Of a stretch of DNA of 64,000 nt, positions 1 to 26,286 are shown piece after piece. The notes beneath the pieces were generated by a model that worked only from the letters and a program-made list of their open reading frames with translations, made no database searches and was not told the origin of the DNA. Positions within the stretch are counted from its first letter, which is position 1, and every line of letters begins with the position of its first letter. The translations under genes and the position numbers were made by a program. This stretch comes from Candidatus Omnitrophota bacterium (lineage in GTDB: Bacteria > Omnitrophota > Gorgyraeia > Gygaellales > Profunditerraquicolaceae), in NCBI GenBank assembly GCA_043814315.1, contig JBDRKE010000010.1, positions 66,896 through 130,895 of the forward strand, in the 5' to 3' direction.

Positions 1-17
1 TACCAGGGAGGGATGTC

Positions 18-2927: not shown

Positions 2928-2959
2928 GTAGCGGGTGGCTTGGACTGATGAGTATAAAA

Positions 2960-3192: not shown

Positions 3193-3221
3193 GTAACCGT
3201 CAAATAGTTTGGTAAGATTCC

Positions 3222-6203: not shown

Positions 6204-6206
6204 GAA

Positions 6207-6364: not shown

Positions 6365-6383
6365 TTAAAGCGAGGTGCTTGAT

Positions 6384-7094: not shown

Positions 7095-7165
7095 CGTAAA
7101 GTGCAAAGTGAAAAACGCAAAACTAAAACGCTTTAAGTTCTAACTTTACGCTTTGAGCTTTACGT
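7095..7165. repeat. coreless hairpin element (cgtaaag/gcaaag-type arms)
   Basis: gcgtaaagtgcaaagtgaaaaacgcaaaactaaaacg is followed directly by the imperfect complement ctttaagttctaactttacgctttgagctttacgt. Confidence 0.75.
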
Positions 7166-7184
7166 ACAACTTATAGGATAGAAT

Positions 7185-8345
7185 ATGTTTGAACTGTCAC
7201 AGAAGATTCAAAGTCTGCCTCCGTATCTTTTCGCGGAAATCGATAAGGCGAAAAGAAAGGCCCGGGCCGAAGGCAGGGACATCATTGACTTAGGCGTGGG
7301 GGATCCTGATACGCCGACGCCAAAACACATTATTCAGGCTTTGTGTCAGGCCGCACAGGATCCTGTTTGTCACCGATATGCTTTGGACCAGGGGATGCCG
7401 GCTTTACGACAAGCTATTCAGCGTTGGTACAAAAAAAGATTCAACGTGGATCTTAATCCTGATACAGAAATCCTGCCATTGATTGGTTCCAAGGAGGGGC
7501 TGGCTCACTTTCCGTTGGCATTCCTGAATAAAGGGGATTATTCTTTGGTACCTGATCCCTGTTATCCTCCTTATAAAGGCGGAACGATTCTTGCCGGAGG
7601 CAGGCCCTTTTCTTTACCGCTTCTTGAGCAGAATTCGTTTTTACCGGACCTGAAAAATATACCCTCTTCTATCCGAAAAAAAGCCAAGCTCATATATATC
7701 AATTATCCTAATAACCCTACTTCTGCGACCGCAGAAAAGGATTTTTTTAGCGCAACTGTAGCATTTGCTCTCAAAAATAAAATAGGGATTTTATCAGACT
7801 TAGCCTATTCGGAGATGGCTTATGACGGCTATAGGCCCTCTAGCGCCCTGGAGGTCGAAGGGGCCAAGGAAGCCGTTGTAGAATTTCATTCCCTGTCCAA
7901 GACTTTTAACATGACCGGTTGGCGTATCGGCTGGGCGTGCGGTAATGAAAAAGCGATAGCTGCCCTGGCCAAGGTCAAATCCAACATGGATTCAGGGATA
8001 TTTTCTGCGATTCAATTAGCCGGCGTGGCTGCCCTGGAAGGGCCCCAGGCGCATATCAAGGATATGTGTCAGTTGTATCAGCAGCGCAGGGATATTCTCA
8101 TAAAAAGTTTACATTCCCTGGGTTGGCCGGCAGATTCTCCCAAGGCCACTTTTTACGTCTGGATGAAAGTTCCGCGTAAGACCGATTCCATAACATTTGC
8201 TCAAGTCCTGCTGAAAAAGGCCGATATTGTTGTCACCCCCGGTGTAGGATTCGGCAGATACGGAGGCGGTTTTATCCGCATGGCCCTGACCGTGCCTGAA
8301 GAGAGGATAGAAGAAGCCATACGGCGCTTAAAAAAAATTCTATGA
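7185..8345 (+). CDS. dapL: LL-diaminopimelate aminotransferase (class I aminotransferase)
   Basis: 386 aa. N-terminus LPPYLFAEID...DLGVGDPD, the PLP-Lys context SLSKTFNMTGWRIGW, and position directly after dapA/dapB/dapF/lysA. No dapD/dapC/dapE genes are in the window. Confidence 0.7.
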   Translation: MFELSQKIQSLPPYLFAEIDKAKRKARAEGRDIIDLGVGDPDTPTPKHIIQALCQAAQDPVCHRYALDQGMPALRQAIQRWYKKRFNVDLNPDTEILPLIGSKEGLAHFPLAFLNKGDYSLVPDPCYPPYKGGTILAGGRPFSLPLLEQNSFLPDLKNIPSSIRKKAKLIYINYPNNPTSATAEKDFFSATVAFALKNKIGILSDLAYSEMAYDGYRPSSALEVEGAKEAVVEFHSLSKTFNMTGWRIGWACGNEKAIAALAKVKSNMDSGIFSAIQLAGVAALEGPQAHIKDMCQLYQQRRDILIKSLHSLGWPADSPKATFYVWMKVPRKTDSITFAQVLLKKADIVVTPGVGFGRYGGGFIRMALTVPEERIEEAIRRLKKIL

Positions 8346-8746
8346 TGGCCATCTGTTATTTGGGAATAGGTTCGAACTTAGGCAATAGAAAAAAGAATAT
8401 TAGGATGGCCGTTAAAAAGATCAACGCCTTGGAAGAAACGAAGGTTATCAAATTATCCCGCCTCATGGAAACGGCGCCACTTAACGGCCCCACCAGCCAG
8501 AGAAAATTCCTGAATGCTTGCCTTAAGATCAAAACAGATATCAGCCCGTTTCATCTCCTTAAGAAACTTAAACAAATAGAAAAAGAGCTGGGTCGTAAGC
8601 GCACGTTGCGTTTCGGCTCCAGGACGATAGACTTAGATATATTGCTTTACCAGGATAAGGTTATAAACAGCAGGAATCTTAAAATTCCTCATCCGAGGAT
8701 GTTTGAGCGTAAATTTGTTTTAAAGCCCCTATCAGAAGTTGTATGA
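8342..8746 (+). CDS. folK: 2-amino-4-hydroxy-6-hydroxymethyldihydropteridine diphosphokinase
   Basis: 134 aa with the HPPK blocks YLGIGSNLGNR, RTIDLDILLY and PHPRMFERKFVLKPL. Confidence 0.85.
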   Translation: MMAICYLGIGSNLGNRKKNIRMAVKKINALEETKVIKLSRLMETAPLNGPTSQRKFLNACLKIKTDISPFHLLKKLKQIEKELGRKRTLRFGSRTIDLDILLYQDKVINSRNLKIPHPRMFERKFVLKPLSEVV

Positions 8747-9597
8747 GAATTGTCCGTAACATAAAAGAAATGGTCCGCTTCGCCCAAAAAGTGAGGCTTA
8801 AAGGGGATTCCATCGGATTTGTGCCGACTATGGGCGCCTTGCATCTTGGGCATCTGAGCTTAATCAGGCGTTGCCATAGAGAAAATGATTTTACGGTAGT
8901 CAGTATATTTGTTAATCCTATCCAGTTCTTGCCCCGCGAAGACTACAATAAATATCCGCGGGATCTCAAGCAGGATGCCGAGGTTTGCAGGAAGGAAGGA
9001 GTGGATATTTTATTTTATCCTGATGTCAAAGATATGTATCCGCAACCTTTGAGAACCACTGTTGATGTAAAGGGCCTAAGCGAGGTGTTATGCGGGCGCT
9101 TTCGGCCCGGTCATTTCAGAGGCGTTACGACGGTAGTCGCGAAACTTTTCCATATCGTTTATCCTGATAACGCTTATTTTGGCCAAAAGGACGCTCAACA
9201 GGCTGTCATTATCAAAAAGATGGTAGAGGATCTCAACTTCCCTGTTCAAATAAAAGTCATGCCTATCGTGCGGGAGCCAGACGGCCTGGCGATGAGTTCA
9301 AGGAATAAGTATCTTAATGAAGAGGAAAGAAGAGACGCGGCAGTTCTTTATCATGCCTTAAATCTGGCCAGGCGCTCTGTGGCCATGGGAGAAACGAGCG
9401 CATCCAAGATCATCAGTTTCATGCGGGAGCTTATTCAAAAGAAAAAAAGCGCGAAAATTGATTATATTTCCGTCATGGATTTACAAAATCATAAGCCTTT
9501 GAATAAAATAAAGGGGAAGGCCCTGATTGCCCTGGCGGTGCGGATAGGCAAGATCAGACTTATTGATAATATAATCGTGTCTGTCAAATATCGATGA
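8743..9597 (+). CDS. panC: pantoate--beta-alanine ligase
   Basis: 284 aa with PTMGALHLGHLSL, FVNPIQF, GQKDAQQ and MSSRN. Confidence 0.92.
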   Translation: MRIVRNIKEMVRFAQKVRLKGDSIGFVPTMGALHLGHLSLIRRCHRENDFTVVSIFVNPIQFLPREDYNKYPRDLKQDAEVCRKEGVDILFYPDVKDMYPQPLRTTVDVKGLSEVLCGRFRPGHFRGVTTVVAKLFHIVYPDNAYFGQKDAQQAVIIKKMVEDLNFPVQIKVMPIVREPDGLAMSSRNKYLNEEERRDAAVLYHALNLARRSVAMGETSASKIISFMRELIQKKKSAKIDYISVMDLQNHKPLNKIKGKALIALAVRIGKIRLIDNIIVSVKYR

Positions 9598-9620
9598 ATA
9601 TTAAGGTAAGTAATGACCTA

Positions 9621-9643
9621 TTTTGAATTTTGACATTTGAATT
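9621..9643. repeat. single G/T-rich repeat arm (ttttgaattttgacatttgaatt)
   Basis: Matches the reverse complement of 35101..35123 (aattcaaatgtcaaaatccaaaa) at 22 of 23 positions by eye. Confidence 0.7.
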
Positions 9644-9651
9644 GTAAAGGT

Positions 9652-10476
9652 ATGGCTAAGTTATTAAAAATTGGCATTGTCGGCTGCGGCGCTATCGGAA
9701 GCTCATTAGCCAAAACAGTCATTAAGGATTTTCAGAAGGAAGCGAAATTAACGTCGCTTTATGACATCGATAAAGAAAGGTCTGCAGTGCTTTCGAAGTC
9801 GGTCTTTGAGACGCGCAGGCTCCATGTGCATAGCCTTAAACAATTGATTTGTAAATCTGATTTGGTGATTGAGGCCAGCTCTGCCCGGGCTTCCTTCGGC
9901 ATAGCGCAGAAAGTATTGGCGCGAGGCAAGGGTGTCATGATCATGAGTGTTGGCGGAGTCGCCGGTCATATAAAGACGCTGGCCGCTTTAGCCAAGAGGC
10001 GGGGCGGCCGAGTCTACATTCCCAGCGGCGCTGTTTCGGGTATAGACGCTTTAAAAGCGGCAGGGTGTGCAAGGTTAAAAAAGGTTTGCCTGACGACGTA
10101 CAAGAATCCCGCATCTTTCAGGGGGGTAGATATCATCAACAGGAAGAAAATAGATCTGGATAAGATAAAAAAGGATACGGTCATATTCTGTGGTTCCGCA
10201 AGAGAGGCGATTCGGTTGTTTCCGCAGAATATCAATGTGGCAGGACTCCTGAGCATCGCCGGTGTCGGTCAAGACAGGACGACGGTCAAAATCATTGCAT
10301 CGCCTGCGACAAAGAAAAATATACACGAGATCCACATAGAGTCCTCGGCAGCCACAATTATGACGCGCACGCAGAATATTTTGCACCCTGATAATCCTAA
10401 GACGAGTTACCTGGCGGTGCTATCCGCGGTGGCCATGTTAAAACAGATATTAGAGCCAGTTAAAATTGGTACTTGA
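9652..10476 (+). CDS. nadX: aspartate dehydrogenase-like NAD(P)-binding protein
   Basis: N-terminus MAKLLKIGIVGCGAIG (Rossmann fold). About 275 aa, with length and layout typical of L-aspartate dehydrogenase. Assigned from family resemblance only. Confidence 0.55.
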   Translation: MAKLLKIGIVGCGAIGSSLAKTVIKDFQKEAKLTSLYDIDKERSAVLSKSVFETRRLHVHSLKQLICKSDLVIEASSARASFGIAQKVLARGKGVMIMSVGGVAGHIKTLAALAKRRGGRVYIPSGAVSGIDALKAAGCARLKKVCLTTYKNPASFRGVDIINRKKIDLDKIKKDTVIFCGSAREAIRLFPQNINVAGLLSIAGVGQDRTTVKIIASPATKKNIHEIHIESSAATIMTRTQNILHPDNPKTSYLAVLSAVAMLKQILEPVKIGT

Positions 10477-10486
10477 AATCAAAATA

Positions 10487-10610
10487 AGGTTTCATAAGGT
10501 TGCCTAAGGTTACATAATGTTCCATAAAGTTACGCCTTTGGTAACCTTACGTAACATTATGCCTGCCTGCCGGCAGGCAGGGAACCTCATGGTACCTTAT
10601 GTAACTTTAA
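10487..10610. repeat. modular hairpin element (cataaggtt-type arms, cctgcctgccggcaggcagg core)
   Basis: The left half is made of 9-10-nt units (tcataaggtt, cctaaggtt, acataatgtt, ccataaagtt). The right half holds their complements (aaccttacgt, aacattatg, aacctcatggt, accttatgt). A perfect 20-nt palindrome lies at 10562..10581. Confidence 0.8.
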
Positions 10611-10647
10611 TAATAAAATTAATAAATGAGAGGAGGTGAATTCGAAT

Positions 10648-10890
10648 ATGGCAGAAAAAGTAGTGAAGTTGGGCATCAAAAGGGAGAAAGGTTATCTCTA
10701 TTACATCGACAAAAAAGGAGATGTTTCTTGCGCCAAGATGGCTAGAGGCAAGAAAAAAGGCGGTAACCCGAAAAAAGTCGCAAAATGCGGCATCAAGAGA
10801 AAAGAGGGATACCTTTATTTTCTTGATAAAAAAGGGGATGTCTCCTGCGCCAAGATGAAAAGAGGCGGAAAAAAGAAGAAAAAAAGATAG
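10648..10890 (+). CDS. small, very basic protein made of two tandem ~38-aa repeats
   Basis: A strong SD (aggagg) lies upstream of the ATG at 10648. Repeat 1 is VKLGIKREKGYLYYIDKKGDVSCAKMARGKKKGG and repeat 2 is VAKCGIKRKEGYLYFLDKKGDVSCAKMKRGGKKKKKR. A clear terminator follows. Confidence 0.7.
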   Translation: MAEKVVKLGIKREKGYLYYIDKKGDVSCAKMARGKKKGGNPKKVAKCGIKRKEGYLYFLDKKGDVSCAKMKRGGKKKKKR

Positions 10891-10906
10891 TAAGAGAGAA
10901 AAAAGA

Positions 10907-10974
10907 GGGGGGGTCAGATCTATTCTTCTGACTCCGTTTCTAAAAAGAAAATAGATCTCACCCCCTTTTTTTTT
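10907..10974 (+). terminator. rho-independent terminator
   Basis: gggggtcagatctatt pairs with aatagatctcaccccc (one mismatch), followed by a run of nine T. Confidence 0.8.
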
Positions 10975-10992
10975 GCAAAAAGGACAAAAGCC

Positions 10993-11754
10993 ATGCTGGA
11001 AGGTAAGAAGGTTGTGGTGGTCATGCCTGCCTACAATGCGGAGAAGACTTTAGAGCAGACCTTTCGAGAAATCCCCAGGGATATCGTTGATGACATATTG
11101 GTGGTGGATGACAATAGCAAGGACAAGACCCTTGCAGTAACCAGGCGTTTAAATTTAGAGGTTTTTGTCCATGATAAAAATAAGGGTTACGGCGCCAATC
11201 AGAAGACTTGTTATACAGAGGCCCTTAAGAAAAAAGCGGATATCGTTATCATGCTCCATCCGGATTATCAATATCCGCCTAAACTGATCACGGCAATGGC
11301 AGGCTTGATCTGTTCCGGCATGTTTGATATCGTTTTGGGGTCAAGAATCCTTGGGGGAATGGCCCTTAAGGGTGGAATGCCTTTATATAAATATATAGCT
11401 AATAGGATTCTTACCCTTTTGGAGAATATCCTACTGGGGCAGAAGTTGTCAGAGTATCATACCGGCTACAGGGCTTTTTCAAAAGAGGTGCTTATGAATC
11501 TGGCGCTCCTTGAGAATTCAGATGATTTTGTTTTCGACAACCAGGTTATTGTTCAAGCGGTGTACGCCGGTTACAGGATAGGTGAAATCACCGCGCCTTC
11601 CCGGTACACCCAGGAGTCATCCTCCATTTCTTTCAAAAGAAGCGTTGTCTATGGCTTCGGGGTGCTCTGGACGGCCGTAAAATTCATCCTGCAAAAGATG
11701 AGTGTAGCGAAATTTTCAATTTTCGATAGAAATGGAAAAAAGATCGATCTCTAA
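10993..11754 (+). CDS. family 2 glycosyltransferase (polyprenol-phosphate sugar synthase-like)
   Basis: 253 aa. Contains VVMPAYNAE, VVDDNSKD and a C-terminal amphipathic region, which is the Dpm1/GtrB-like layout. Confidence 0.8.
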   Translation: MLEGKKVVVVMPAYNAEKTLEQTFREIPRDIVDDILVVDDNSKDKTLAVTRRLNLEVFVHDKNKGYGANQKTCYTEALKKKADIVIMLHPDYQYPPKLITAMAGLICSGMFDIVLGSRILGGMALKGGMPLYKYIANRILTLLENILLGQKLSEYHTGYRAFSKEVLMNLALLENSDDFVFDNQVIVQAVYAGYRIGEITAPSRYTQESSSISFKRSVVYGFGVLWTAVKFILQKMSVAKFSIFDRNGKKIDL

Positions 11755-12946
11755 CTTTTTTACGGACAAGCGTGTGTTCGTTTTTTTAGGCCTGTTTCTT
11801 GTTTCTTTCGCCCTCATCCAACTGAGTCTAAAGAACATAAACTTCGTCATCCTGGCCGATGAAGGATGTTACTTGAAATACGCTACGTTCATAGGGGATC
11901 ACGGCATAAGAGGATTCAAGAAATTATTTGAGCTTTATACGCAGGATCAAAGTAATTTCTTTCCGAACCCGCTGCGGGTAGGTTTTATCCTACTGTCGGT
12001 CTTTTGGTTGAAGGCCTTCGGGTACTCTTTTCTCGGGTTGGCCTACCTGTCTTTATTCTCATTTTTGGCCTTCTTATGCGTCAGTTATTATTTTTCCAGT
12101 AAGTATTTCGATAAAGACACAGGCTTATTCTATGTGGTCCTTCTTGCCTTTTCACCGCTTGCCTTAGGCTTTGCACGGCGCGCCATGTTGGAAAGTACGC
12201 TCCAGTTGTTTGTGGCCCTTTCCTTTTGGCTGTTCTGGAGCCTTATCCAGGAAAGAAGTTCCTTAAAGTCTGTTGTTTTCATCCTGGTTTTTAGCTTGGC
12301 CATCCTGATGAAGGAGACAGTCGTTTTGTTATCGCCAATCTTTGTTATTTTCCTTTTGCTGAACAAACTTTTATTTAAAAAAGAAGTTCGGCTCATGGAT
12401 TTTTTGACTGTTTCGGTTTTTCCTTTTTTGATCGTTGGGCTTATTTATATATCCGTGGGCGGGCTAACGAACACCCTCCAGACCATCAGGATTATCCTCC
12501 ATTCGCCGAAAACCAATCCCTACCCGATAGCCTTTGGCCAGGGGCCGTGGTTTCGTTATATCGTTGACTATATGCTGTTTTCTCCCTGGGTCCTGCTGTG
12601 TTCCGTCGGTTTTATATTTTCTTACTTTGTATCTGATAGGCGCCAAGACCTCCAGGCCTATTTCCTGGTTATGGCCATCATGAGTCTTGTGCTTTTTAAT
12701 TTTTTTACCAAGAATATACGATATGTGATGGTATTGGATATCCCCATGAGATTATTTACGGTCCTTATGTTAAAGGAGATTGTTTTTAAAAGAGTATCCA
12801 GGCACGCCACGGCGGTCCTTGCCTTGCTGGTTTTAGGGATAGCCTTGTCGGATTATCTCAATTTCTATGATTTATTCTTAAAGCAGGGAATTTATGACCC
12901 CGTCAGCTACGTACTTCTTAAATCCAAACGATTCATCCCGTTTTAA
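11732..12946 (+). CDS. polytopic membrane protein, GT-C (ArnT/PMT_2-like) glycosyltransferase candidate
   Basis: About 400 aa with 10 or more hydrophobic segments. It overlaps the upstream GT2 gene, a pairing typical of lipid-linked sugar donor plus GT-C transferase. Confidence 0.5.
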   Translation: MEKRSISNFFTDKRVFVFLGLFLVSFALIQLSLKNINFVILADEGCYLKYATFIGDHGIRGFKKLFELYTQDQSNFFPNPLRVGFILLSVFWLKAFGYSFLGLAYLSLFSFLAFLCVSYYFSSKYFDKDTGLFYVVLLAFSPLALGFARRAMLESTLQLFVALSFWLFWSLIQERSSLKSVVFILVFSLAILMKETVVLLSPIFVIFLLLNKLLFKKEVRLMDFLTVSVFPFLIVGLIYISVGGLTNTLQTIRIILHSPKTNPYPIAFGQGPWFRYIVDYMLFSPWVLLCSVGFIFSYFVSDRRQDLQAYFLVMAIMSLVLFNFFTKNIRYVMVLDIPMRLFTVLMLKEIVFKRVSRHATAVLALLVLGIALSDYLNFYDLFLKQGIYDPVSYVLLKSKRFIPF

Positions 12947-12980
12947 ACAAAAGACAACTTTTTTGAAAGCGAGCGTTCCT

Positions 12981-15854
12981 ATGCATAATCATGACGCTAT
13001 TGTTATCCATGGTGCTAAAGAGCACAACCTTAAAAATATAAATCTTATCCTACCGCGCCAGAGACTGATTGTTGTTACAGGGTTATCTGGTTCGGGTAAA
13101 TCAAGCCTCGCCTTTGATACCATCTACGCGGAAGGCCAGCGTCGATTCGTGGAGAGCCTTTCCAGCTACGCGCGTCAGTTTTTAGAACAATTACAGAAGC
13201 CCGATGTCGAATATATCGGCGGATTATCGCCGACCATTGCCATTGAACAGCGTACAGCAGGCGGCAATCCGCGTTCCACGGTAGCCACCCAAACCGAGAT
13301 CTACGATTATTTAAGATTGCTTTTTGCCCGCATCGGAAGGGTTTATTGTTATCGGTGTCAACGGCCGATCAACAGACAAAGTTCCCAAGAGATTGTTGAT
13401 AGAATCATGGCCATGCCGGCCCAGACAGAGATGCAAATACTAGCTCCTGTTATCTCAGGAAGAAAAGGGGAATATAAAGAGATCTTCAGTTGGATTCAAA
13501 AATCAGGGTTCCTGCGTTGTCGCGTTGACGGTAAGATTTACGAATTGCCGTTAGATTTAAAGTTAGCAAAATATAAAATGCATCATATCGAGGTGGTCGT
13601 AGATAGATTAGTCCTAAGCCCGCAAGTAAAGAAAAGACTTACGGATTCCATCGAGACGGCACTTAAAGTAGGCAAAGGCACGGTTATTATTAGCCAGCTA
13701 GCCAGTTACCCAATTACCCTATCGAACCGGCAAACCGGCCAATCGGCCAACCGGCCAACCGGCAAACCGGCAAATCGGCCAACCGACTTAGTCTTCAGCG
13801 AACAGTACGCCTGCACAAAATGCGGGATCAGCTATGCACAAGTCCAGCCGCGCAATTTTTCTTTTAATTCACCCTACGGCGCCTGCCCGGAGTGCCACGG
13901 CCTTGGCACAAAACTAGAGTTTGATCCTGACTTAGTTATTTCGGACAGAAGCAAATCCATCCAGGAAGGAGCGCTTGAGCCCTGGAAGAGGGGAGGCAGG
14001 GGCTACATCCTCTATTATCGCTGGCTCATCCGGGAGCTGTCTTACAAGATGCATTTTGATTTAGACACTCCGTTTAAGAACCTGAGAAAGGAAGTGCAGA
14101 AGGCCGTACTTTTTGGGACGGATGAAGAGGTCAACGGCAAGCCCTTCGAAGGCGTGATTCCCCATCTGGAAAGGTTATTCCGGGAAACGGATAGCGATTA
14201 TTTAAAAGAAGAGATATCCAAATTCATGTCGAGCCTGAGTTGTTCCTTGTGCCAGGGGGCCAGACTTAAAAAGGAAAGCTTGTCTGTGAAGATTCAAGGC
14301 AAGAATATTTGGCAGATCGCCCAGATGTCTATCAAAGAAGCCAGAGGCTTCTTTAAAGGTCTGGATTTAAGCGAAAAAGAAAAAACGATTGCGCATCAGG
14401 CCTTGAAAGAGATTGTCCAGAAATTACAGTTTTGCGTGGATGTGGGGTTGGAGTATTTAACGCTGGACAGAAGAAGCTCGACGCTTTCCGGCGGAGAGGC
14501 GCAGAGGATTCGCCTGGCCACTCAGGTTGGATCCGGCCTTGTCGGAGTGTTGTATGTATTGGATGAGCCCAGTATCGGCCTGCACCAAAGGGACAACAAT
14601 AAATTGCTTTCGACATTGGAGGCGTTACGGGATCTGGGCAACACGTTGATTGTTGTGGAGCACGACGAGAGTACAATTCTTTCCTCTGACTATATCGTGG
14701 ATTTGGGGCCGGGAGCTGGCCGGCACGGCGGGGAAGTCGTATTCTGTGGCACAAAGGAAGAATTATTAAGGCATCCGGAGTCGCTGACGGCGAAATATTT
14801 AAGGCGCGAATTAAAGATCGAGATCCCTAAGAAGAGAAGGCCCTGGCAAGACAGGAAATTCCTTGTGGTTACCGGAGCCAGAGAGCACAATCTTAAAAAC
14901 ATAGAAGTGAAATTTCCTCTGGGTCTTTTTATCTGCGTGACGGGAGTTTCTGGTTCGGGCAAGTCCACTCTGGTCGATGAGATCCTGTTCAGAAGCCTCG
15001 CGCAAAAACACTACAAATCCAAAGATAAACCGGGGCTTCACGATAAGATTACAGGTATAGAGCTTATCGATAAAGTGATTGTCGTGGATCAGTCTCCCAT
15101 AGGCAGGACTCCCCGCTCGAATCCCGCAACCTACACAGGAATGTTTGGCCCTATCAGGGATTTATTCAGCAAGCTTCCCGAAGCCAAGGTGCGCGGATTT
15201 AAACCCGGCAGATTTTCTTTTAACGTAAAAGGGGGCCGTTGCGAGGCGTGCTCCGGGGATGGCATCAAGAAAATCGAGATGCATTTTCTTCCGGATGTGT
15301 ATGTGAAGTGCGATATCTGCAAGGGGAACAGGTTCAACGAATCCACCCTGGAAGTCAAATTCAAAGGCCAATCCATAGCGGATGTCTTAAGGATGACCGT
15401 AGAGGAGGCCTTGGACTTATTTGGCAATGTGCCAAAGATAAAGAACACGCTGGGCTATCTTTATGACGTAGGCTTGGGGTATATGACGCTGGGGCAGGCC
15501 GCCACAACGCTTTCCGGCGGAGAGGCACAGCGCATTAAGTTATCTAGCGAGCTGAGCAAGCGCTCTACGGGAAAGACCCTGTACATTTTGGATGAGCCGA
15601 CAACGGGATTGCATTTTGCCGATGTAGACAAGCTGCTTTGCGTGCTCCAAAGGTTAGTCGACAAAGGCAACACCGTGGTCGTTATCGAACATAACTTAGA
15701 AGTCATTAAATGTGCTGATTATATTATCGATCTTGGGCCTGAGGGGGGAGATAGAGGCGGAGAATTGGTGGTAGCGGGGACTCCCGAAGCGTTGCTTCGC
15801 TGCAAGGCGTCGTTTACGGCCGATGCCCTGAGAAAGGTGTTGAAGAGGCGCTGA
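12981..15854 (+). CDS. uvrA: excinuclease ABC subunit A
   Basis: N-terminus MHNHDAIVIHGAKEHNLKNI, two Walker A motifs (GLSGSGKSS and GVSGSGKST), two LSGGE signatures and zinc-finger Cys pairs. The ATG at 12981 is preferred over the longer ORF from 12894. Confidence 0.95.
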   Translation: MHNHDAIVIHGAKEHNLKNINLILPRQRLIVVTGLSGSGKSSLAFDTIYAEGQRRFVESLSSYARQFLEQLQKPDVEYIGGLSPTIAIEQRTAGGNPRSTVATQTEIYDYLRLLFARIGRVYCYRCQRPINRQSSQEIVDRIMAMPAQTEMQILAPVISGRKGEYKEIFSWIQKSGFLRCRVDGKIYELPLDLKLAKYKMHHIEVVVDRLVLSPQVKKRLTDSIETALKVGKGTVIISQLASYPITLSNRQTGQSANRPTGKPANRPTDLVFSEQYACTKCGISYAQVQPRNFSFNSPYGACPECHGLGTKLEFDPDLVISDRSKSIQEGALEPWKRGGRGYILYYRWLIRELSYKMHFDLDTPFKNLRKEVQKAVLFGTDEEVNGKPFEGVIPHLERLFRETDSDYLKEEISKFMSSLSCSLCQGARLKKESLSVKIQGKNIWQIAQMSIKEARGFFKGLDLSEKEKTIAHQALKEIVQKLQFCVDVGLEYLTLDRRSSTLSGGEAQRIRLATQVGSGLVGVLYVLDEPSIGLHQRDNNKLLSTLEALRDLGNTLIVVEHDESTILSSDYIVDLGPGAGRHGGEVVFCGTKEELLRHPESLTAKYLRRELKIEIPKKRRPWQDRKFLVVTGAREHNLKNIEVKFPLGLFICVTGVSGSGKSTLVDEILFRSLAQKHYKSKDKPGLHDKITGIELIDKVIVVDQSPIGRTPRSNPATYTGMFGPIRDLFSKLPEAKVRGFKPGRFSFNVKGGRCEACSGDGIKKIEMHFLPDVYVKCDICKGNRFNESTLEVKFKGQSIADVLRMTVEEALDLFGNVPKIKNTLGYLYDVGLGYMTLGQAATTLSGGEAQRIKLSSELSKRSTGKTLYILDEPTTGLHFADVDKLLCVLQRLVDKGNTVVVIEHNLEVIKCADYIIDLGPEGGDRGGELVVAGTPEALLRCKASFTADALRKVLKRR
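13725..13786 (+). repeat. degenerate octanucleotide tandem repeat (cMaaYcgg, about 7.5 units) inside uvrA
   Basis: aaccgg caaaccgg ccaatcgg ccaaccgg ccaaccgg caaaccgg caaatcgg ccaaccga, translated as NRQTGQSANRPTGKPANRPT. The same unit occurs non-coding at 51302..51332 and flanks the mtaB insert. Confidence 0.9.
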
Positions 15855-15874
15855 AGAAATGATATAGTTTAAAC

Positions 15875-18520
15875 ATGGGTAAATCACAAATCCCAATTTC
15901 CAAATCCCAAACAAATCCAAAATTCAATGCTTCGACTGCGCTTGCCATTGACACCGAGGCGGCCCTTCGTTTCGTTTCACTCGCTGTGGGTCGTCCCGAG
16001 CGAAGTCGAGGGACGAAGCCGAGGTGCCAAATCCAAAAAATTCAAATTGGCAGATTACTTGTTGTTTTTTTTGTGCTTGTATTTGCTTCGAACTACGAAC
16101 TTCGAACTCCGTACTTTGCTTATGCCCAGGATCCCAAAGAGGAAGAGGCACTCTTCGTTGCAAAGAAAGCCTTTGATGATGGTTTCTATGATGTCAGTCA
16201 GAACTTATTAGAGCGATTCCTCATTCAATACCCGCGTTCTTCAAAGACAGCGGAAATTCATCTATTGATGGGGCGTTCTTTTTTTTACCAAAATAGATTC
16301 TTGGATGCGCTTTCCAAATTTGAAGAACTTTTGGGCCAGCCCCAGGCTAAAAACCTTAAAGATGCCCTTTTTTACTGGATAGCCGAAGTCCACTTCAAGG
16401 GCAATAGTTTCAATAAGGCGGCCAGTTTTTACAAAAAGATTATTGATGAATTCCCGTCTTCTTCCTATTTAGGCGCTTCCTATTATTCATTGGCGTGGTG
16501 TTACTTCCAGGAAAGAAAATTTGAAGAGGCCCTCGCTTATTTCAAGATCATCGAAGAAAGGTACCTTCAAGAATCCTCTTTTCAAGATGCACCTTTAAAG
16601 ATCATCGAGTGCCTTTACAATTTAAAAGATTATGAGGGACTCAAAAAAAAGGTGAGGTCTTACTTGAATCTTTATCCCAAGAGCGCAGAGCAATCGCCTT
16701 ACCCCTATTTTTATTTGGCTGAAGCTGATTATTACCTCGGTAATTTTCAAGAAGCGATCGAAGAATATTCTTCGATTCTTAAGAGCAGCCTTGATCCCAA
16801 GGCGCAGGCGCTCTCGAAGATGGGTATGGCATGGTCTTATCTTAAATTGAAAAAATACAAAGAGGCAGAAAGCGCATTTTTGGATATCAAAGAAGGACAC
16901 CTTGAGAAAAGAAGCCAGGAGATCTTGCGGCTGGGTGAGGCTATCCTCATGGTTGAGACGAACCGCGTCAACGAAGCCAAAGGCATTTATGAGCAACTGC
17001 TGAGCCGTTCGGACGATCCCCTTGTTTTAATTCAGGCCTATCTGGGGAAAGCAGACGCCCTTTATAACCTTGCAGAATATCATGAGGCGATCAGCGTATA
17101 TAAAGAGGCCTTGAGTAAGTTTAGCCCCGGGACCGTTCCTCAGGAGATCATGGATAAAATACACTATAGCCTTAGCTGGACCTATTTAAAGCAGGGGGAA
17201 TTCAAGGAGGCCATCAAAGAGTTTCAGAGAATCGTCAAAGAAACAGACGATAAAATCGTTAAAGTCAGCGCGCTTTGTCAAATAGGTGATGCGTATCAGG
17301 ATTCCGGAGATTATACCGAAGCCCAGGAAGCCTATTCCGTCATATTAAAGGATTACCCCGATAATTTCTATAGCGATTATGTGCAATACCAGTTAGGCCT
17401 GACGCTGCTTAAAGCCTCTAACTATGAAGGGGCTATTATGAGCTTTCAGGCCCTCAAAAGAAATTTTCCCCAATCCAAACTTTTAGACGACGCCACGTAC
17501 GCGCTTGGGTTAGCCTATTTCCAAAGACAGGATTATAATTCCAGCCGTGTCCTCTTTGAAAGTTTTGAGCAGGAATTCAAGGATAGTCCACTTAAGCCCC
17601 AGGCCCTTTATCTTCTTGGCACCTGTTTCTATAACCTGCGTGAATTTGCCAAGGCGATTGAGGTGTTTAAGAATGTCATCAGATTGTATAGCCAGGATAC
17701 CGATTTGGTCCAGAAGGCAGAATATGAAATAGCCGATTGTTATGACCAGATGGGAGACGAAAAAGAGGCGGTGAACCGATTCAATATCTTGCGTTCCAAA
17801 TATCCTGATTCGAGCCTGACCCCCGAAGTCATGTGGTGGCTGGGAGAATACTATTACAAACATAACGAATTGGAGTTGGCGCGCCGGTACTTTTCGACCC
17901 TCATCAGAGACTTTCCCAAAAGCCCGCTGGTCGCGGATTCCTATTATGCCGTAGGGACAAGTTTTGAAGAGGAATCCAGGCATGAGGAGGCAATAGAGAA
18001 TTTTCGGAAAGTCATGGATTTGGGCAAAACCGACCTTAATGGCCAGGCTGCTATCGCTATCGCAGACATATACGTCAAACAGGAAAACCTGGAATCAGCC
18101 ATCAAGGCTTATCAGGAGATTAGCAGAGAATATCCGAATCTGACCCATTTGATTTATCCCAAGATGGCCCAGCTTTACTACAAAACTGCAGATTTCAGTC
18201 AAGCTTTAAATTTTTATCGCAAGAGCCTTGATGTGGTATCGGTAAGAGAAATGGGGAATATCCATTTTAAAATAGCCGAAGTGTTGCAAGCACAGGGAAC
18301 TCTGGATGAGGCTATAGAGGAATACCTGAAAGTCGCCTACCTTTATCCAGAGAATGACTTGCTCGCCATTAAGGCCCTTTTAAGAGTAGCTCAGATCTAT
18401 GAAGATAAAGAGAATTTTAAAGAGGCCGCGCGTATCTATGAAAAAATAGTTTCAATAGACGCTGAAGAAGCCAAGTATGCACAAGAGAGGATAGACTGGA
18501 TAAAGGTACACGTAAAATAA
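15875..18520 (+). CDS. large TPR-repeat protein (probably exported); N-terminus uncertain
   Basis: About 800 aa of tandem TPR-like repeats (the YbgF/CpoB-style pattern A..Y..A....g.y.eA). The first ~70 codons of the ORF read through an intergenic repeat element. No canonical start lies just before the hydrophobic LLVVFFVLVFAS segment. Confidence 0.7.
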   Translation: MGKSQIPISKSQTNPKFNASTALAIDTEAALRFVSLAVGRPERSRGTKPRCQIQKIQIGRLLVVFFVLVFASNYELRTPYFAYAQDPKEEEALFVAKKAFDDGFYDVSQNLLERFLIQYPRSSKTAEIHLLMGRSFFYQNRFLDALSKFEELLGQPQAKNLKDALFYWIAEVHFKGNSFNKAASFYKKIIDEFPSSSYLGASYYSLAWCYFQERKFEEALAYFKIIEERYLQESSFQDAPLKIIECLYNLKDYEGLKKKVRSYLNLYPKSAEQSPYPYFYLAEADYYLGNFQEAIEEYSSILKSSLDPKAQALSKMGMAWSYLKLKKYKEAESAFLDIKEGHLEKRSQEILRLGEAILMVETNRVNEAKGIYEQLLSRSDDPLVLIQAYLGKADALYNLAEYHEAISVYKEALSKFSPGTVPQEIMDKIHYSLSWTYLKQGEFKEAIKEFQRIVKETDDKIVKVSALCQIGDAYQDSGDYTEAQEAYSVILKDYPDNFYSDYVQYQLGLTLLKASNYEGAIMSFQALKRNFPQSKLLDDATYALGLAYFQRQDYNSSRVLFESFEQEFKDSPLKPQALYLLGTCFYNLREFAKAIEVFKNVIRLYSQDTDLVQKAEYEIADCYDQMGDEKEAVNRFNILRSKYPDSSLTPEVMWWLGEYYYKHNELELARRYFSTLIRDFPKSPLVADSYYAVGTSFEEESRHEEAIENFRKVMDLGKTDLNGQAAIAIADIYVKQENLESAIKAYQEISREYPNLTHLIYPKMAQLYYKTADFSQALNFYRKSLDVVSVREMGNIHFKIAEVLQAQGTLDEAIEEYLKVAYLYPENDLLAIKALLRVAQIYEDKENFKEAARIYEKIVSIDAEEAKYAQERIDWIKVHVK
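15881..16050. repeat. modular repeat element (aaatcccaaa arm, gagcgaagtcgagggacgaag core)
   Basis: A/C-rich arm at 15881..15927, a GC-rich core with cgaag-periodic inverted segments at 15960..16024, and a second short A/C arm at 16027..16050. Confidence 0.75.
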
Positions 18521-18536
18521 CATATAAGACAACATG

Positions 18537-18731
18537 ATAAATCCCAGATCCAAAATAAATCCCTGCCTGTGGCAGACAGGCAAAATCCCAAATCCAAAAC
18601 TATTTGGGATTTTGAAATTGGCACTTCGGGTTCGCCTCAGTGCCAATGGTGAGCGAAGTCCTGAGCTTGTCGAAGGACGAAGTCGAACCGTGGGATTTGT
18701 TTGGTAGTATTGGTATTATTTGGATTTTGTC
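18537..18731. repeat. modular hairpin element (aaatcccaaa / tttgggattt arms with two GC-rich cores)
   Basis: Left arm ataaatcccagatccaaaataaatcc, a gcctgtggcagacaggc hairpin, aaaatcccaaatccaaaac/tatttgggattttg, the core ggtgagcgaagtcctgagcttgtcgaaggacgaagtcgaac, then gggatttgtttggtagtattggtatt. Confidence 0.8.
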
Positions 18732-18753
18732 TGATTAACAGAGGAGGATAAGG

Positions 18754-19386
18754 ATGGATCTTTACAGGATGAATTTTTTTCAGGTTTTTTTAGCAGGCGG
18801 CCCGGTGATGTGGCCGATACTCTTGTGTTCTATTTTTGCGCTGGCCATAGTGCTGGAGAAGATCTGGTACTTGTATAAAATAAAAATAGACACCCAGGAT
18901 TTCTTGAACAAGATTCTGGATAAGATGAAACGCCATGACACTAAAGAGGCTTTACGCATTTGCGACGGCACAAAGAGCCCCATAGCTAATATTTTGAAGG
19001 CGGGAATTCTTAAATACGACCGGCCGCGCCCTCAGATTATAGAGGGGATCGAAGATGCTTCTTTGTATGAGATACCCCGCATAGAAAAGAATCTTACGAC
19101 GCTGGCAACCATTGCGCATGTTTCTCCGCTCTTAGGACTCTTGGGAACGGTTACGGGAATGGTGAGGTCTTTCCAAATCATCCAGGCGAAAGCCAGCAGT
19201 TTTCATCCTGTTTCTCCGGGAGATTTGGCCGGCGGGATTTGGGAGGCGTTATTAACGACAGTAGCCGGTTTGATTGTGGCCATACCTACTTTTGTAGCCT
19301 ATAATTACCTGGTTAGCCGCATCAATCATTTTATTCTGGAGATGGAAAAAGCCTCAACCGAATTGGTAAATTTTCTTACTGAATAA
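18754..19386 (+). CDS. MotA/TolQ/ExbB family proton channel
   Basis: 210 aa with three TM segments. C-terminal region GDLAGGIWEALLTTVAGLIVAIPTFVAYNYL is typical of TolQ/ExbB. Confidence 0.85.
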   Translation: MDLYRMNFFQVFLAGGPVMWPILLCSIFALAIVLEKIWYLYKIKIDTQDFLNKILDKMKRHDTKEALRICDGTKSPIANILKAGILKYDRPRPQIIEGIEDASLYEIPRIEKNLTTLATIAHVSPLLGLLGTVTGMVRSFQIIQAKASSFHPVSPGDLAGGIWEALLTTVAGLIVAIPTFVAYNYLVSRINHFILEMEKASTELVNFLTE

Positions 19387-19411
19387 AAAAGTTACAGTGG
19401 AGAGCATCGTG

Positions 19412-19440
19412 CTGTTAACTGTTAACTGCAAACTGAGAAC
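19412..19440 (+). repeat. short heptamer-periodic tract (ctgttaa ctgttaa ctgcaaa ctgagaa)
   Basis: Read directly in the tolQ-tolR spacer. It is a single arm with no complementary partner nearby. Confidence 0.6.
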
Positions 19441-19464
19441 TCTTGCGGCTGAAAGGAGCAAGTG

Positions 19465-19866
19465 ATGCGCTTTAAAGGACGAATGGAATTAGAGCACGGG
19501 CTCAAACAAATTGATATCGCGCCTTTGATAGATATCATTTTTCAGCTGTTGATATTTTTTATGCTGACATCAAGCTTTATCATACAGCCGGGCATAAGAA
19601 TTAATTTACCCAAGGCTGTAACTAGTGAAGTCGTCAAAATTGAGAATGTCGAAATCATAATTACCGGCGAGAACATTATTTATTTAAACGGTAAGGTTAT
19701 CACGAGCGCTGAGCTCAAGGGGTTTCTTAAACAGGCCGCTAAAAGGGATCAGGCTATTTTGATTAAATCCGACAGGCGCGCCTCTTTAGGCAGAGTCGTG
19801 GAGATCTGGGATATGGCGCGGGATTTAGGGGTCAGCCAGATCAATATCGCCACAAACCAGGAGTAG
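19465..19866 (+). CDS. ExbD/TolR family protein
   Basis: The sequence IDIAPLIDIIFQLLIFFMLT sits in the single N-terminal TM segment. About 133 aa, located directly after the TolQ-like gene, with the SD aaaggag upstream. Confidence 0.8.
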   Translation: MRFKGRMELEHGLKQIDIAPLIDIIFQLLIFFMLTSSFIIQPGIRINLPKAVTSEVVKIENVEIIITGENIIYLNGKVITSAELKGFLKQAAKRDQAILIKSDRRASLGRVVEIWDMARDLGVSQINIATNQE

Positions 19867-19871
19867 ATTTT

Positions 19872-20516
19872 TTGATTTTTAAGGAATTCATATTCATATC
19901 TTTACTAAGTCATATCACCCTGTTTAGCCTTTTTAGCCTATCGTTTGGCAACAAAATCCCGGTGGCAGATTATACGGCTGTTTCTTTTTTAGGGCAGCTG
20001 CTGTTTTCTTCGCAGGTAGAGCCTGGCACCCTGACCTTAAATGGCGAAGAGCAGGATTCCGGTAGTTTAAAAACCATCTTCAAAAGAAATTCAGGCAAGA
20101 TATTATTGAAAGAAAACAGCAAGGGCATTCCTTATGGTTTCGATTATTATTTTAAACCCGCACTGGAGCCTGGCATGACAGCCCCGGGAAAGGCATCCAT
20201 GTTCTTAGAGACGGTTTTTACGCCCCCGCCTTTAGTCCGCAAAGATCAGACAGTCATATTCCATCCCATACTGCCTTACAGTTTTCCACTCTATTTCCGA
20301 GATAGGCAGGTGGCCCACGTTGAACTCATTTTCAAGATAGCGCCGGCCGGCCCGAGGGATTTAGTACTTATAAAAAGAAAGATTTCCTCGGGTAATCTGG
20401 AGGTTGATCTTTTGAGTATGCGTTATATCGGACGCTACCTTTTTATCCAGCAGAAAGGCTTTGTTCCCACCGACTGGCAGACCGTCAAGATTGACCTTTC
20501 GGCGAGGCAGGAGTGA
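19872..20516 (+). CDS. membrane-anchored protein with a TonB/TolA-like C-terminal region
   Basis: N-terminal TM segment. The C-terminal KRKISSGNLEVDLLSMRYI resembles the TonB_C SSG..LD motif. Its position after ExbB/ExbD-like genes supports the call. Confidence 0.4.
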   Translation: MIFKEFIFISLLSHITLFSLFSLSFGNKIPVADYTAVSFLGQLLFSSQVEPGTLTLNGEEQDSGSLKTIFKRNSGKILLKENSKGIPYGFDYYFKPALEPGMTAPGKASMFLETVFTPPPLVRKDQTVIFHPILPYSFPLYFRDRQVAHVELIFKIAPAGPRDLVLIKRKISSGNLEVDLLSMRYIGRYLFIQQKGFVPTDWQTVKIDLSARQE

Positions 20517-20517
20517 G

Positions 20518-20739
20518 ATGATCAGCATAGATTTTTCTCTGGCCATCGCTTTATTTAATTTTGTCTTTTTGGCTTTGCTGTTAGCGTTCTGGATATTTAG
20601 TAAAAAGCAAAAGGATAAAGATTTAAGCCTTAATCCCAAATTTATCTGGTTCTGCTCTATCTGCACCTACACCTATGTCAATACGAAAGAGGATGTTATT
20701 TCAACATGCCCACGATGCGGGAATTATAATAAGAGGTAA
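20518..20739 (+). CDS. small membrane-anchored zinc-ribbon protein
   Basis: MISIDFSLAIALFNFVFLALLLAFWIF (TM segment) followed by CSIC...CPRCG. The ATG at 20518 lies 1 nt after the upstream stop. Confidence 0.5.
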   Translation: MISIDFSLAIALFNFVFLALLLAFWIFSKKQKDKDLSLNPKFIWFCSICTYTYVNTKEDVISTCPRCGNYNKR

Positions 20740-20831
20740 GTGAGGGGTCGTAATACCGAGGATTTTATCTCAAGTGTATTTTCAAAAAGTGGAGGGGGAT
20801 TAATTCGCAGACGGCTTATTAAAAAAACTAA

Positions 20832-20859
20832 TTGACCCTTATCTTTTTGTTGCTATAAT
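20832..20859 (+). promoter_or_regulatory. sigma70-like promoter candidate
   Basis: TTGACC (20832..20837), a 16-nt spacer, then TATAAT (20854..20859), about 65 nt upstream of the 20926 start. Confidence 0.5.
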
Positions 20860-20925
20860 ATTTTCAACAAACAAAGGTAAAAAAGGGAAACGTCAGTATC
20901 TTACAATCGCATGGAGGGATAAAAG

Positions 20926-21132
20926 ATGATTACAGAAATCGGGATCGTAGCCGGCGATATATGGCATTTTTTGGATCAGCACGGAGAAGTCAGCATATCG
21001 TTTCTTGTGCAAGGGTTAGATAAGCCGCGCGATAATGTGCTTATGAGTTTAGGGTGGCTCGCCAGAGAAGGGCATGTGATTGTCCAGCAGGTTGAGGGAG
21101 AATACAAAATAAGTTTAAGAAAAGATGACTGA
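20926..21132 (+). CDS. small winged-helix protein (DUF2582-like)
   Basis: 68 aa. The pattern GDIWHFLDQHGEVSISFLVQGL...LMSLGWLAREGHV fits the ~70-aa winged-helix family. Confidence 0.55.
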   Translation: MITEIGIVAGDIWHFLDQHGEVSISFLVQGLDKPRDNVLMSLGWLAREGHVIVQQVEGEYKISLRKDD

Positions 21133-21541
21133 TAAGCCAATGCAAAAAAAGGGCGTATTGCTGCTTATCGTGATTACAACTATAGTGATAGCTGTTATTT
21201 TGAGTAATGTTATCTTAAATATAATGCTTAGTCAAGGCCGCCTGACCACCTATGAGCTCAACCGCATCCAGGCCAAATATGCGTGTATGGCAGGCATAAA
21301 CTGGGGTTACGAAAACCTAAGAAGCGGGAATTGGGCAAAGCCTGCAGCCGGGGCTTGCGATAGAAGGCCTCTTACGGATGCTGCTTTTCCTTCCTCTATC
21401 CGTAGTATTGATGTATATGTGGCATCTCCAGGTGCCGTTTGCCAAGATGCAGGTGGCACCCAGGTTACACAACCTTGCAGTCCTCCTGCCGGAGCCGAGG
21501 TTTGTATTAGTGTCATTTCAGACTATCTTTACACCCCCTAA
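21125..21541 (+). CDS. PilX/GspK-like minor pilin-like protein
   Basis: Basic N-terminus plus a long hydrophobic helix (KKGVLLLIVITTIVIAVILSNVILNIM), then AKYACMAGINWGYENL, comparable to the PilX_N A..LAEAG block of ORF 43606. It overlaps the winged-helix gene by 8 nt. Confidence 0.45.
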   Translation: MTDKPMQKKGVLLLIVITTIVIAVILSNVILNIMLSQGRLTTYELNRIQAKYACMAGINWGYENLRSGNWAKPAAGACDRRPLTDAAFPSSIRSIDVYVASPGAVCQDAGGTQVTQPCSPPAGAEVCISVISDYLYTP

Positions 21542-21565
21542 ATATTTCTTAAAATCCTCCCTTAA

Positions 21566-21598
21566 AAAACTATTATAATCTAAGTAAAACTATTATAA
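21566..21598 (+). promoter_or_regulatory. 13-nt direct repeat pair spaced 20 nt (candidate operator)
   Basis: aaaactattataa occurs at 21566..21578 and 21586..21598. The 8-bp inverted repeat atgtataa/ttatacat follows at 21615..21639. Confidence 0.3.
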
Positions 21599-21652
21599 AA
21601 TTATATCATGTAGTATGTATAATTTTATGGTTTATACATTCTCAGCCAGAAT

Positions 21653-21735
21653 CCTTCGGCAGGCTCAGGACACTTCGCCGAAGAATAACCATAGCAAACC
21701 TTAGGCTTTAGACCGAGGTACCCGTAGGTTGATTT
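21653..21735 (+). repeat. two dispersed-repeat modules in the cluster A leader region
   Basis: The hairpin core ccttcggcaggctcaggacacttcgccgaag (21653..21683) recurs at 36989..37020 inside mtaB. The segment ccttaggctttagaccgaggtacccgtaggttgattttt (21699..21735) recurs at 50899..50938 upstream of rplU. Confidence 0.8.
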
Positions 21736-21778
21736 TTCAAATATAAGTAAGTCTAAGTAAATTTATAGCAAAAAATAC

Positions 21779-21807
21779 TTGACAATACTAGAATCTTATG
21801 TTCTAAT
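21779..21807 (+). promoter_or_regulatory. sigma70-like promoter candidate for pilus cluster A
   Basis: TTGACA (21779..21784), a 17-nt spacer, then TCTAAT (21802..21807), about 70 nt upstream of the 21879 start. Confidence 0.5.
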
Positions 21808-21878
21808 TAAGTTCAATATAGTTTATCATGTTTTTTAATAATTTTGCTTTATCTAGTTAGAAACAGGAGTAAAGCCTG

Positions 21879-23644: not shown

Positions 23645-23648
23645 CCCT

Positions 23649-24155: not shown

Positions 24156-24159
24156 CCTT

Positions 24160-24705: not shown

Positions 24706-24706
24706 A

Positions 24707-26284: not shown

Positions 26285-26286
26285 CC

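Follow-up and report, generated by a model that had tools for sequence, protein, structure and literature searches.

What is a tandem array of octanucleotides, a unit whose length does not fit the reading frame, doing inside uvrA? The array in question lies in a 64-kb stretch of DNA (the window; all positions below are in its numbering) from a metagenome-assembled genome of Candidatus Omnitrophota. Our analysis suggests that it probably belongs to a tolerated, fast-turning-over palindromic repeat cassette, which is a passenger at the level of DNA and no regulatory device. A first-pass annotation of the window had described the array as degenerate 8-mers translated in frame within uvrA, which our data bear out, and had proposed that it could toggle a mutator phenotype, for which we find no support.

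The octamer tract in uvrA is real and goes beyond chance. Tandem Repeats Finder (TRF) reports a period-8 array at 13725..13785 with 7.6 copies, 86% matches and a score of 87, and also gives the tract as period 32 with 1.9 copies, 96% matches and a score of 115. The top TRF score in 40 first-order Markov simulations of the window was 67, and the simulated windows held on average 0.275 arrays scoring at least 50, against 7 observed of period 7-8. The units run in the order AACCGGCA AACCGGCC AATCGGCC AACCGGCC AACCGGCA AACCGGCA AATCGGCC AACCGAC, with a longest perfect stretch of only ~2.25 units. They are in frame with the open reading frame (ORF) 12894..15854 and give the peptide ...SNRQTGQSANRPTGKPANRPTD.... 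Its product matches a 957-aa NCBI entry (P0001), 'excinuclease ABC subunit UvrA [Candidatus Omnitrophota bacterium]', at 100% identity, and shows Pfam matches to UvrA_inter (residues 133-239) and UvrA_DNA-bind (residues 315-414).

The tract is arm B of a two-armed cassette and no stand-alone microsatellite. The gene and the parts of the cassette are as follows.

12981..15854, + strand: uvrA, 957 aa counted from M30 at 12981 (the mechanical ORF start is 12894)
13690..13788, + strand: the whole in-frame cassette of ~99 nt, made of arm A, a 2-nt centre and arm B, encoding about QLASYPITLSNRQTGQSANRPTGKPANRPT
13690..13722, + strand: arm A, four 8-9-nt units TTAGCCAGC TAGCCAGT TACCCAAT TACCCTAT, of the type (TAGCCAGY/TACCCWAT)x4
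13725..13788, + strand: arm B, (AACCGGCM / AATCGGCC)x7.6
13693..13771, - strand: a long imperfect hairpin, formed on the antisense strand only

The two arms are imperfect complements of each other. In the antisense fold, units 2-6 of arm B pair with arm A and unit 1, and units 7-8 (13772..13789) form a small separate hairpin. The 103-nt cassette region folds on this strand with -56.3 kcal/mol (z -5.9, 0/200 shuffles as good), while the sense fold is unremarkable (-25.4 kcal/mol, z -0.95). The mismatches on the sense strand are mostly A.C, which become G.U on the antisense strand.

In the protein, the UvrA_inter match ends at residue 239 of 957, which is profile position 107 of 109, exactly where the extra sequence starts; the isolated interaction-domain constructs 3fpn and 4dfc align up to the insert, and it falls between residues 258 and 263 of PDB 9gxk, with 4 residues (259-262) there and 29 in the query. 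The window UvrA is ~25 aa longer here than the solved UvrA structures, in agreement with the earlier view of the segment as an insertion. An AlphaFold2 model of window:13200-14300 (61 homologues, mean pLDDT 70.6, of moderate quality outside the core) places residues 170-194 of the modelled segment, with pLDDT<50 and no secondary structure, between strands at segment residues 161-166 and 196-200. Taken together, the Pfam boundary, the break in the PDB alignment and the low-confidence loop of the model indicate that the insert lengthens the tip of the last beta-hairpin of the UvrB-interaction domain by a disordered stretch.

How does this site look in relatives? We aligned 121 UvrA sequences, i.e. 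the query and its 120 nearest proteins (P-numbers; P0001, the query's own NCBI entry, is among the 120), and fetched the DNA of related Omnitrophota uvrA genes (L-numbers). Five loci form a homologous series, in which the first arm of the window corresponds to (GTTAGCCN)x4 of the relatives.

L165: arm A (GTTAGCCN)x4, arm B (ACCGGCAA)x1
L161: arm A x4, arm B (ACCGGCAA)x4, perfect
L163: arm A x4, arm B (ACAGGCAA)x4, perfect
L164: arm A x4, arm B x4
Window: arm A x4, arm B x7.6

Arm copy number shifts in steps of three units, and the window exceeds the arm B of L161 by such a step. Further combinations can be read from protein sequences, apparently 1+1 in e.g. P0092 and P0114 (SQLNRQxD) and 1+4 in P0055. 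The lengths of the loop segment cluster at 25-28 aa (51 sequences), 35-37 (15), 42-44 (30) and 52 among the 121 sequences, and the insert is absent from 51 of them. Changes by three units of 7 or 8 nt would produce such a spacing, so the argument of the first-pass annotation that the frame is kept only in blocks of three units is supported.

The units within an arm also change together. CCGG has become CAGG in all four units of L163 (ACAGGCAA, compared with ACCGGCAA in L161), and in (ACCGGCAC)x3.9 of L087 CAAA has become CACA in three of the four units. This concerted change indicates that the arrays turn over faster than point differences accumulate. It had been said beforehand that a homologous peptide in related UvrA proteins, together with a lack of length polymorphism in deep read data, would mark the feature as ancient and fixed. 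The peptide is indeed present in relatives (e.g. P0011, ...LNRQTGKPANRQTD), but its sequence is neither ancient nor fixed, and it turns over very fast.

These data bear directly on the idea of a contingency locus, in which slippage by one octamer would shift the uvrA frame and so toggle nucleotide-excision repair and mutability. A unit of 8 nt is no multiple of 3, arm lengths do vary between lineages, the perfect arrays of 4-4.6 units in relatives should slip readily, and the 32-nt periodicity (96%) hints at a past change by a non-multiple of 3. However, there is not a single frameshifted allele among the loci with both flanks anchored, all 120 nearest proteins are full length, and all the variation that we see consists of three-unit steps or replacement of whole cassettes. 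The window tract is degenerate as well, being 86% regular with at most about two and a quarter perfect units, and sits mid-gene in a housekeeping protein. Similar arrays are found in lysA and dapF, biosynthetic genes whose off states are likely costly, and loss of uvrA is established not to produce a classical general mutator. We consider this explanation very improbable.

Beyond the homologous series, one codon position of Omnitrophota uvrA hosts many different cassettes of a common architecture. Unrelated two-arm cassettes of 7- or 8-mers, always in frame, occupy the identical codon in L003, L083, L084, L086, L091 and L094, of which five are resolved into arms here.

L003: arm A (CAATACT)x4, arm B (CGTCGAC)x4
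L086: arm A (GTCACAG)x4, arm B (CATGCGA)x4
L084: arm A (TYCAGGC)x6, arm B (GCCTGCR)x4
L094: arm A (GTYCNCGG)x4, arm B (AACTCACG)x4
L091: arm A (nnnGTTCT)x4, arm B (GAACnnnn)x4

Near-identical uvrA genes can carry unrelated cassettes. Over ~15 kb, L083 and L086 share about 96-98% identity. Their uvrA genes are ~99% identical outside one tract of ~130-150 nt, which spans the cassette together with ~25 nt before and ~20 nt after it. The pairs L085/L166 and L167/L168 likewise show whole-cassette replacement over uvrA. Across the three pairs the cassette flanks differ by 32 synonymous and 11 conservative codon differences, counted by eye on printed alignments. Such mostly synonymous differences in the immediate flanks would point to import from a diverged functional uvrA allele by short-patch recombination, rather than to local mutagenesis. 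Unrelated loops are found even inside protein clusters at 90% identity or above, and UvrA pairs that are 2.5-5% apart outside the loop (from an analysis with a crude neighbour-joining tree) have wholly different loops or differ in the presence of the insert.

Every island of low identity between L083 and L086 turns out to be a repeat or hairpin element: a DapF-internal cassette, whole intergenic hairpins, and the 21-nt palindrome CCTGCCTGCCCGGCAGGCAGG, which is present in one and absent from the other. The cassettes also match elements at other sites. The uvrA cassette of L086 is the reverse complement of an intergenic hairpin of L083 (z 15.7), and arm A plus loop of the L083 uvrA cassette matches dapF arrays (z 13.7-17.5). 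We considered a rule by which coding copies are always inverted relative to intergenic ones; it holds for the L086 uvrA cassette and the L083 spacer, but the uvrA and spacer copies of the window are co-oriented.

The uvrA genes of L167 and L168, about 97-99% identical otherwise, carry divergent mosaic tracts without repeats at alignment columns 0-100, 1750-1790 and 2440-2470, which suggests frequent short-patch recombination in these populations. We do not claim a recombination hot spot at the cassette, as these tracts also lie away from the loop.

The cassette family has other copies in the genome of the window, as the first-pass annotation had noted for the non-coding rplU-obg spacer and for the flanks of an insert in mtaB; both observations hold. 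The related features are listed below.

51262..51333, + strand: non-coding paralogue in the rplU-obg spacer, (GTTAGCCT-type)x4 + (GGCAAACC)x3.9
36646..37968, + strand: mtaB (UPF0004 + radical SAM; P0142 is named MtaB), with the cassette in the linker between the domains
36970..36988, + strand: left half AACCGGCAAATGGGCAAAT of the MtaB octamer array, translated in the inter-domain linker
36986..37041, + strand: nested palindromic element splitting the MtaB array
37042..37058, + strand: right half CCGGCAAACCGGCAAAT of the MtaB octamer array, translated

The spacer copy lies between genes assigned by Pfam to L21 (rplU) and Obg. Its units are GTTAGCCT GTTTTCCT GTTAGTCG GTTAGCCT ... GGCAAACC GGCGAACC GGCCAACC GGCAAAC, the second part (51302..51332) being reported by TRF as (GGCAAACC)x3.9. 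It has both arm types in common with the uvrA cassettes, in the same order and orientation, and lines up along its length with those of relatives that have 4+4 units, even to the end GGCAAACAG, which they have in common. Aligned to the uvrA cassette of L161 it is identical at 59 of 73 positions (z 12.2 against shuffles). It forms a hairpin with z -3.1, and both strands fold.

In MtaB the linker spans 24-71 aa across 120 homologues and contains periodic peptides as in UvrA, e.g. NLRT..NLRT and NRQTGK. The element nested in the window array is flanked by direct CCGGCAAA units, which may reflect either a duplication or a split array, and its core at 36986..37019 is found again with 97% identity in intergenic DNA at 21650..21683. 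The units and arms in common indicate that the three loci, uvrA, the rplU-obg spacer and mtaB, are truly related, and the presence of one unit in coding and non-coding DNA agrees with the earlier proposal that the uvrA segment is repeat-derived. Nested insertions within an NRQ-type array were also observed in UvrA P0125 (...FNRQ[MPPSDGTPPKAVAGKQANAASGGTPPFGGG]RQTD) and MtaB P0176 (FFNGQTGK[WFDKLTIPRTIPSEVEGRA]NG), parallel to the window MtaB.

A simpler account could be a plain microsatellite formed in situ, i.e. a chance repeat in a permissive loop that was expanded by slippage and is unrelated to other loci. The three-unit step changes fit it, and the array units begin within conserved Val/Ile codons of the upstream strand (GTYATYGTYA...). 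It does not fit the arms being complementary to each other, their sharing of both types and order with the rplU-obg spacer, the wholesale replacement of cassette plus flanks between near-identical uvrA genes, or the match of a uvrA cassette to an intergenic hairpin of a sister strain. We regard it as improbable.

Other housekeeping genes carry similar arrays. The window has a perfect (TACGCAA)x4.9 at 4195..4228 in lysA and a perfect (CTATCCG)x4.6 at 4565..4596 in dapF, translated as LRNTQYAIRNTQ and QLSAIRYPLSAIA, respectively. The orthologous positions of LysA and DapF also carry arrays in L103, L097, L083 and L086, with different arrays in different species. In L103 the unit TTACCAA occurs in both lysA and dapF, ~340 nt apart. 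The peptide NTQYAIR is found in the window LysA and in MtaB P0208 and P0258; by a rough estimate this could be chance given the number of arrays compared, and we made no use of it.

In the Omnitrophota loci and the window together there are 112 arrays with a period of 5-12 and three or more copies, of which 59 have period 7 and 28 period 8 (87/112). The window itself contributes 13, about half of which lie in intergenic spacers, yet these spacers make up only ~8% of the window (hand-summed gaps). The intergenic arrays cluster near 4.5 and 8.3 copies.

The hairpin itself could be functional on the antisense strand, as RNA or single-stranded DNA, either as an antisense RNA or as a structure-specific site for recombination or a nuclease that drives homing-like exchange. 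Antisense z-scores lie between -5.9 and -8.2 for the window, L086 and L083 and near -3 for L091 and L094; on the sense strand most of these cassettes score about -0.2 to -2, but L083 reaches -5.3. In 8 of the 11 folded cassettes (window, L003, L083, L086, L091, L094, L161 and L163) the antisense fold has the lower minimum free energy. The pairing is maintained across lineages despite their differing sequences, and the replacement tracts are short and cassette-centred, with flanks co-converted. On the other hand, the two strands are about equally stable in L164 (-39.9 vs -35.3) and L165, the sense strand gives the better fold in L084, and the arms of L003 fold individually without pairing to each other. 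Independent changes in arm length (4+1, 1+4, 4+7) break the hairpin, and the mosaic tracts of L167/L168 exist without cassettes. A scan for promoters and terminators gave no promoter-like or terminator-like signal at the uvrA cassette, and a tRNA is the sole match in the window to Rfam at gathering thresholds, with nothing at the cassette. We consider a functional hairpin unlikely.

The strand asymmetry of folding is confined to the coding copies; intergenic hairpins fold nearly equally on both strands (e.g. z -7.4/-6.5 and -7.9/-7.4). Mutational bias is a candidate cause that we reject: deamination of C to T, which would leave sense G.U in the exposed G-rich + strand, predicts the opposite of the sense A.C mismatches observed, so selection is favoured. 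Under the passenger reading, the sense strand would have been purged of pairing, as stable pairing would be harmful in the mRNA or while the strand serves as lagging-strand template.

Could selection act on the loop as protein instead? The loop is hypervariable on a very conserved protein, being unrelated in pairs that differ little elsewhere, and it sits at the edge of the UvrB-interaction domain, so that diversifying selection, e.g. for escape from an inhibitor of the domain that binds UvrB or Mfd, might be imagined. But intergenic hairpins, MtaB, DapF and LysA behave identically, the peptides, with their periods of 7 or 8 aa, simply follow from the periodicity of the DNA, short alleles free of the insert are common, and the variation already largely tracks DNA repeat families and not protein properties. 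This alternative seems to us highly improbable.

We return to a palindromic passenger cassette as the reading we prefer. We propose that UvrA tolerates the cassette, which is translated into a disordered loop at its surface, that arm lengths may be altered by replication slippage over three units with only in-frame products surviving, and that short-patch homologous recombination, with diverged but functional uvrA alleles as donors, could carry whole cassettes from one lineage to another, with occasional transfer between sites of one genome.

Several points weigh against this reading. The octamer family has only 2 full and 2 partial copies in the 64 kb, and searches with blastn-short found no second copies of the relatives' cassettes in their own loci of +/-4-10 kb, so that few copies speak for a dispersed family. 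Arrays of 4-5 perfect units, as in relatives, must have slipped or been homogenised very recently, a process that would also yield frameshifts at some rate. The protein cluster of the window UvrA has one member from one contig, and length variants, also out-of-frame ones, may exist within the population. The antisense hairpin is strong (z -6 to -8), and that strand could have a function of its own instead of the sense strand merely having been purged. The reading does not account for the typical ~4.5-unit arm length or for the source of new unit sequences; the idea that ~4.6 copies stem from a seed of 1.6 units, enlarged by the smallest step that keeps the frame (3 units), is weakened because intergenic arrays cluster near 4.5 and 8.3 copies as well.

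A bolder hypothesis could be that fixed 'cassette sites' exist across the phylum, in spacers and in loops of housekeeping proteins (UvrA, MtaB, LysA, DapF), each with a tandem-repeat-armed hairpin, and that a dedicated, structure-specific machinery actively swaps or rewrites these hairpins. This might work through hairpin cleavage with homing-like short-patch conversion, or through a single-strand hairpin recombinase; the strand-asymmetric hairpin would then be the substrate, and the uvrA tract one case of a new class of mobile or self-renewing elements. We give it a small chance.

Among known systems the closest are the Rickettsia palindromic elements (RPE), which are 'protein-coding palindromes' inserted in frame in housekeeping genes according to the summary of Ogata et al. 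2000/2002 in PMC10969869. Both are small palindromic repeated DNA found in intergenic regions and in frame inside unrelated housekeeping genes, where they are translated and tolerated as an extra peptide. The uvrA cassette has the hairpin (on the antisense strand, and also in the spacer copy), intergenic and intragenic copies within 64 kb (uvrA, the rplU-obg spacer and the MtaB linker), and an in-frame insertion at a site compatible with the UvrA fold. The likeness is one of function and architecture, with no sequence similarity to RPE established. The cassettes differ in having arms made of tandem arrays of 7-9-nt units, in their size (~70-100 nt vs ~150 for RPE), in their three-unit copy steps, in the unrelated cassettes that one site holds in near-identical strains, and in their Omnitrophota host.

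Cyanobacterial STRR heptanucleotide repeats and small dispersed repeats (SDR; Mazel 1990, Elhai 2008) reportedly form genome-wide 7-nt arrays that vary between strains and contain tiny mid-array palindromes. The Omnitrophota arrays are similar in being dispersed tandem arrays, just over half of them of period 7 (59/112), and in the tiny palindrome CCTGCCTGCCGGCAGGCAGG that is present or absent between L083 and L086. They differ in host and units, in that complementary pairs of arrays form hairpins, and in being often translated within conserved proteins. SDR are mentioned in PMC3116915.

Contingency loci of Haemophilus, Neisseria and Campylobacter have in common with the uvrA tract a unit in an ORF that is no multiple of 3, so that a slip by one unit shifts the frame. 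The uvrA tract differs in showing no off alleles, in being degenerate and mid-gene in a housekeeping gene, and in its in-frame variation only; instead of alleles differing by single units we found an arm B of 1, 4 or 7.6 units only. Similar to REP, BIME and REPIN elements, the cassettes include short species-specific palindromes in operon spacers that are present or absent at the strain level. REP and REPIN are extragenic, whereas Omnitrophota copies lie inside uvrA, mtaB, lysA and dapF, and one genome has many unrelated units with tandem-repeat arms; elements of the REP kind form a single family linked to a RAYT transposase. In comparison with MITEs, which carry terminal inverted repeats and a target-site duplication, no consistent duplication was seen around the uvrA cassettes, and the direct CCGGCAAA units beside the nested MtaB element might be one. 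What sets the cassettes apart from all these systems is the combination of tandem-repeat arms, fixed orthologous sites with unrelated cassettes, replacement between near-identical strains, and a strand-asymmetric hairpin. A literature search on Omnitrophota or Omnitrophica with tandem or palindromic repeats found no relevant description.

The findings matter in that in a phylum about which little is known, hairpin repeats of selfish appearance are translated within a universal DNA-repair protein and several other housekeeping proteins; they occupy fixed hypervariable sites and can be wholly different between uvrA genes about 96-99% identical elsewhere. They bear on how repeats create and reshape protein loops, on whether a dedicated hairpin-directed exchange process exists in Omnitrophota, and on the use of cassettes as natural barcodes by which metagenomic strains might be distinguished. 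They also caution that an out-of-phase repeat in an ORF is not always a phase-variation switch.

Some further observations concern repeats elsewhere in the window. Most of the longer spacers are large hairpins (6204..6374, 10477..10625, 18521..18755, 35091..35253, 54595..54720 and 59565..59700), with z of -4 to -8 on both strands. Their arms consist of tandem 7-10-nt units (e.g. AAGCGTA, ATAAGGTTAC, AAATCCA) with reverse-complement units opposite, and the unit AAATCC(A/C) is found at many spacers. A small GC-rich palindrome, CCTGCCTGCCGGCAGGCAGG and its variants, is centred in several tandem-repeat hairpins, at about 10563..10585, 18567..18590 and 35133..35165 in the window and at 3250..3270 and 4255..4283 in L086; its presence or absence between the near-identical L083 and L086 resembles that of a tiny mobile insert.

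Downstream of uvrA, the gene of a TPR protein starts with, or close to its start contains, a 7-nt array in the signal-peptide region (15881..15911 in the window); many relatives have such an array with species-specific units (L003, L081, L083, L084 and L164). A (TTCGTTC)x4.9 array at 46792..46825 lies in the N-terminal hydrophobic part of a small ORF (46748..47137) without a Pfam match. The gap 10477..10992 contains a small basic ORF (10648..10890), absent from the list of ORFs, with the internal duplication KGYLYYIDKKGDVSCAKM / EGYLYFLDKKGDVSCAKM. Five tandem units of ~29 nt (ATAATTTGCTGACCCGTTATAGCGGGCGA), each a small hairpin, occupy 29408..29558 just upstream of the ORF 29569..29964; two similar single units lie at about 32215..32260 and 32315..32360, downstream of the tRNA at 32112..32184. 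None of these units has an Rfam match. Nearly all long ORFs of the window (1..64000) are on the + strand, and the GC skew is positive with a monotonic cumulative rise, indicating that the whole window is co-oriented with replication.

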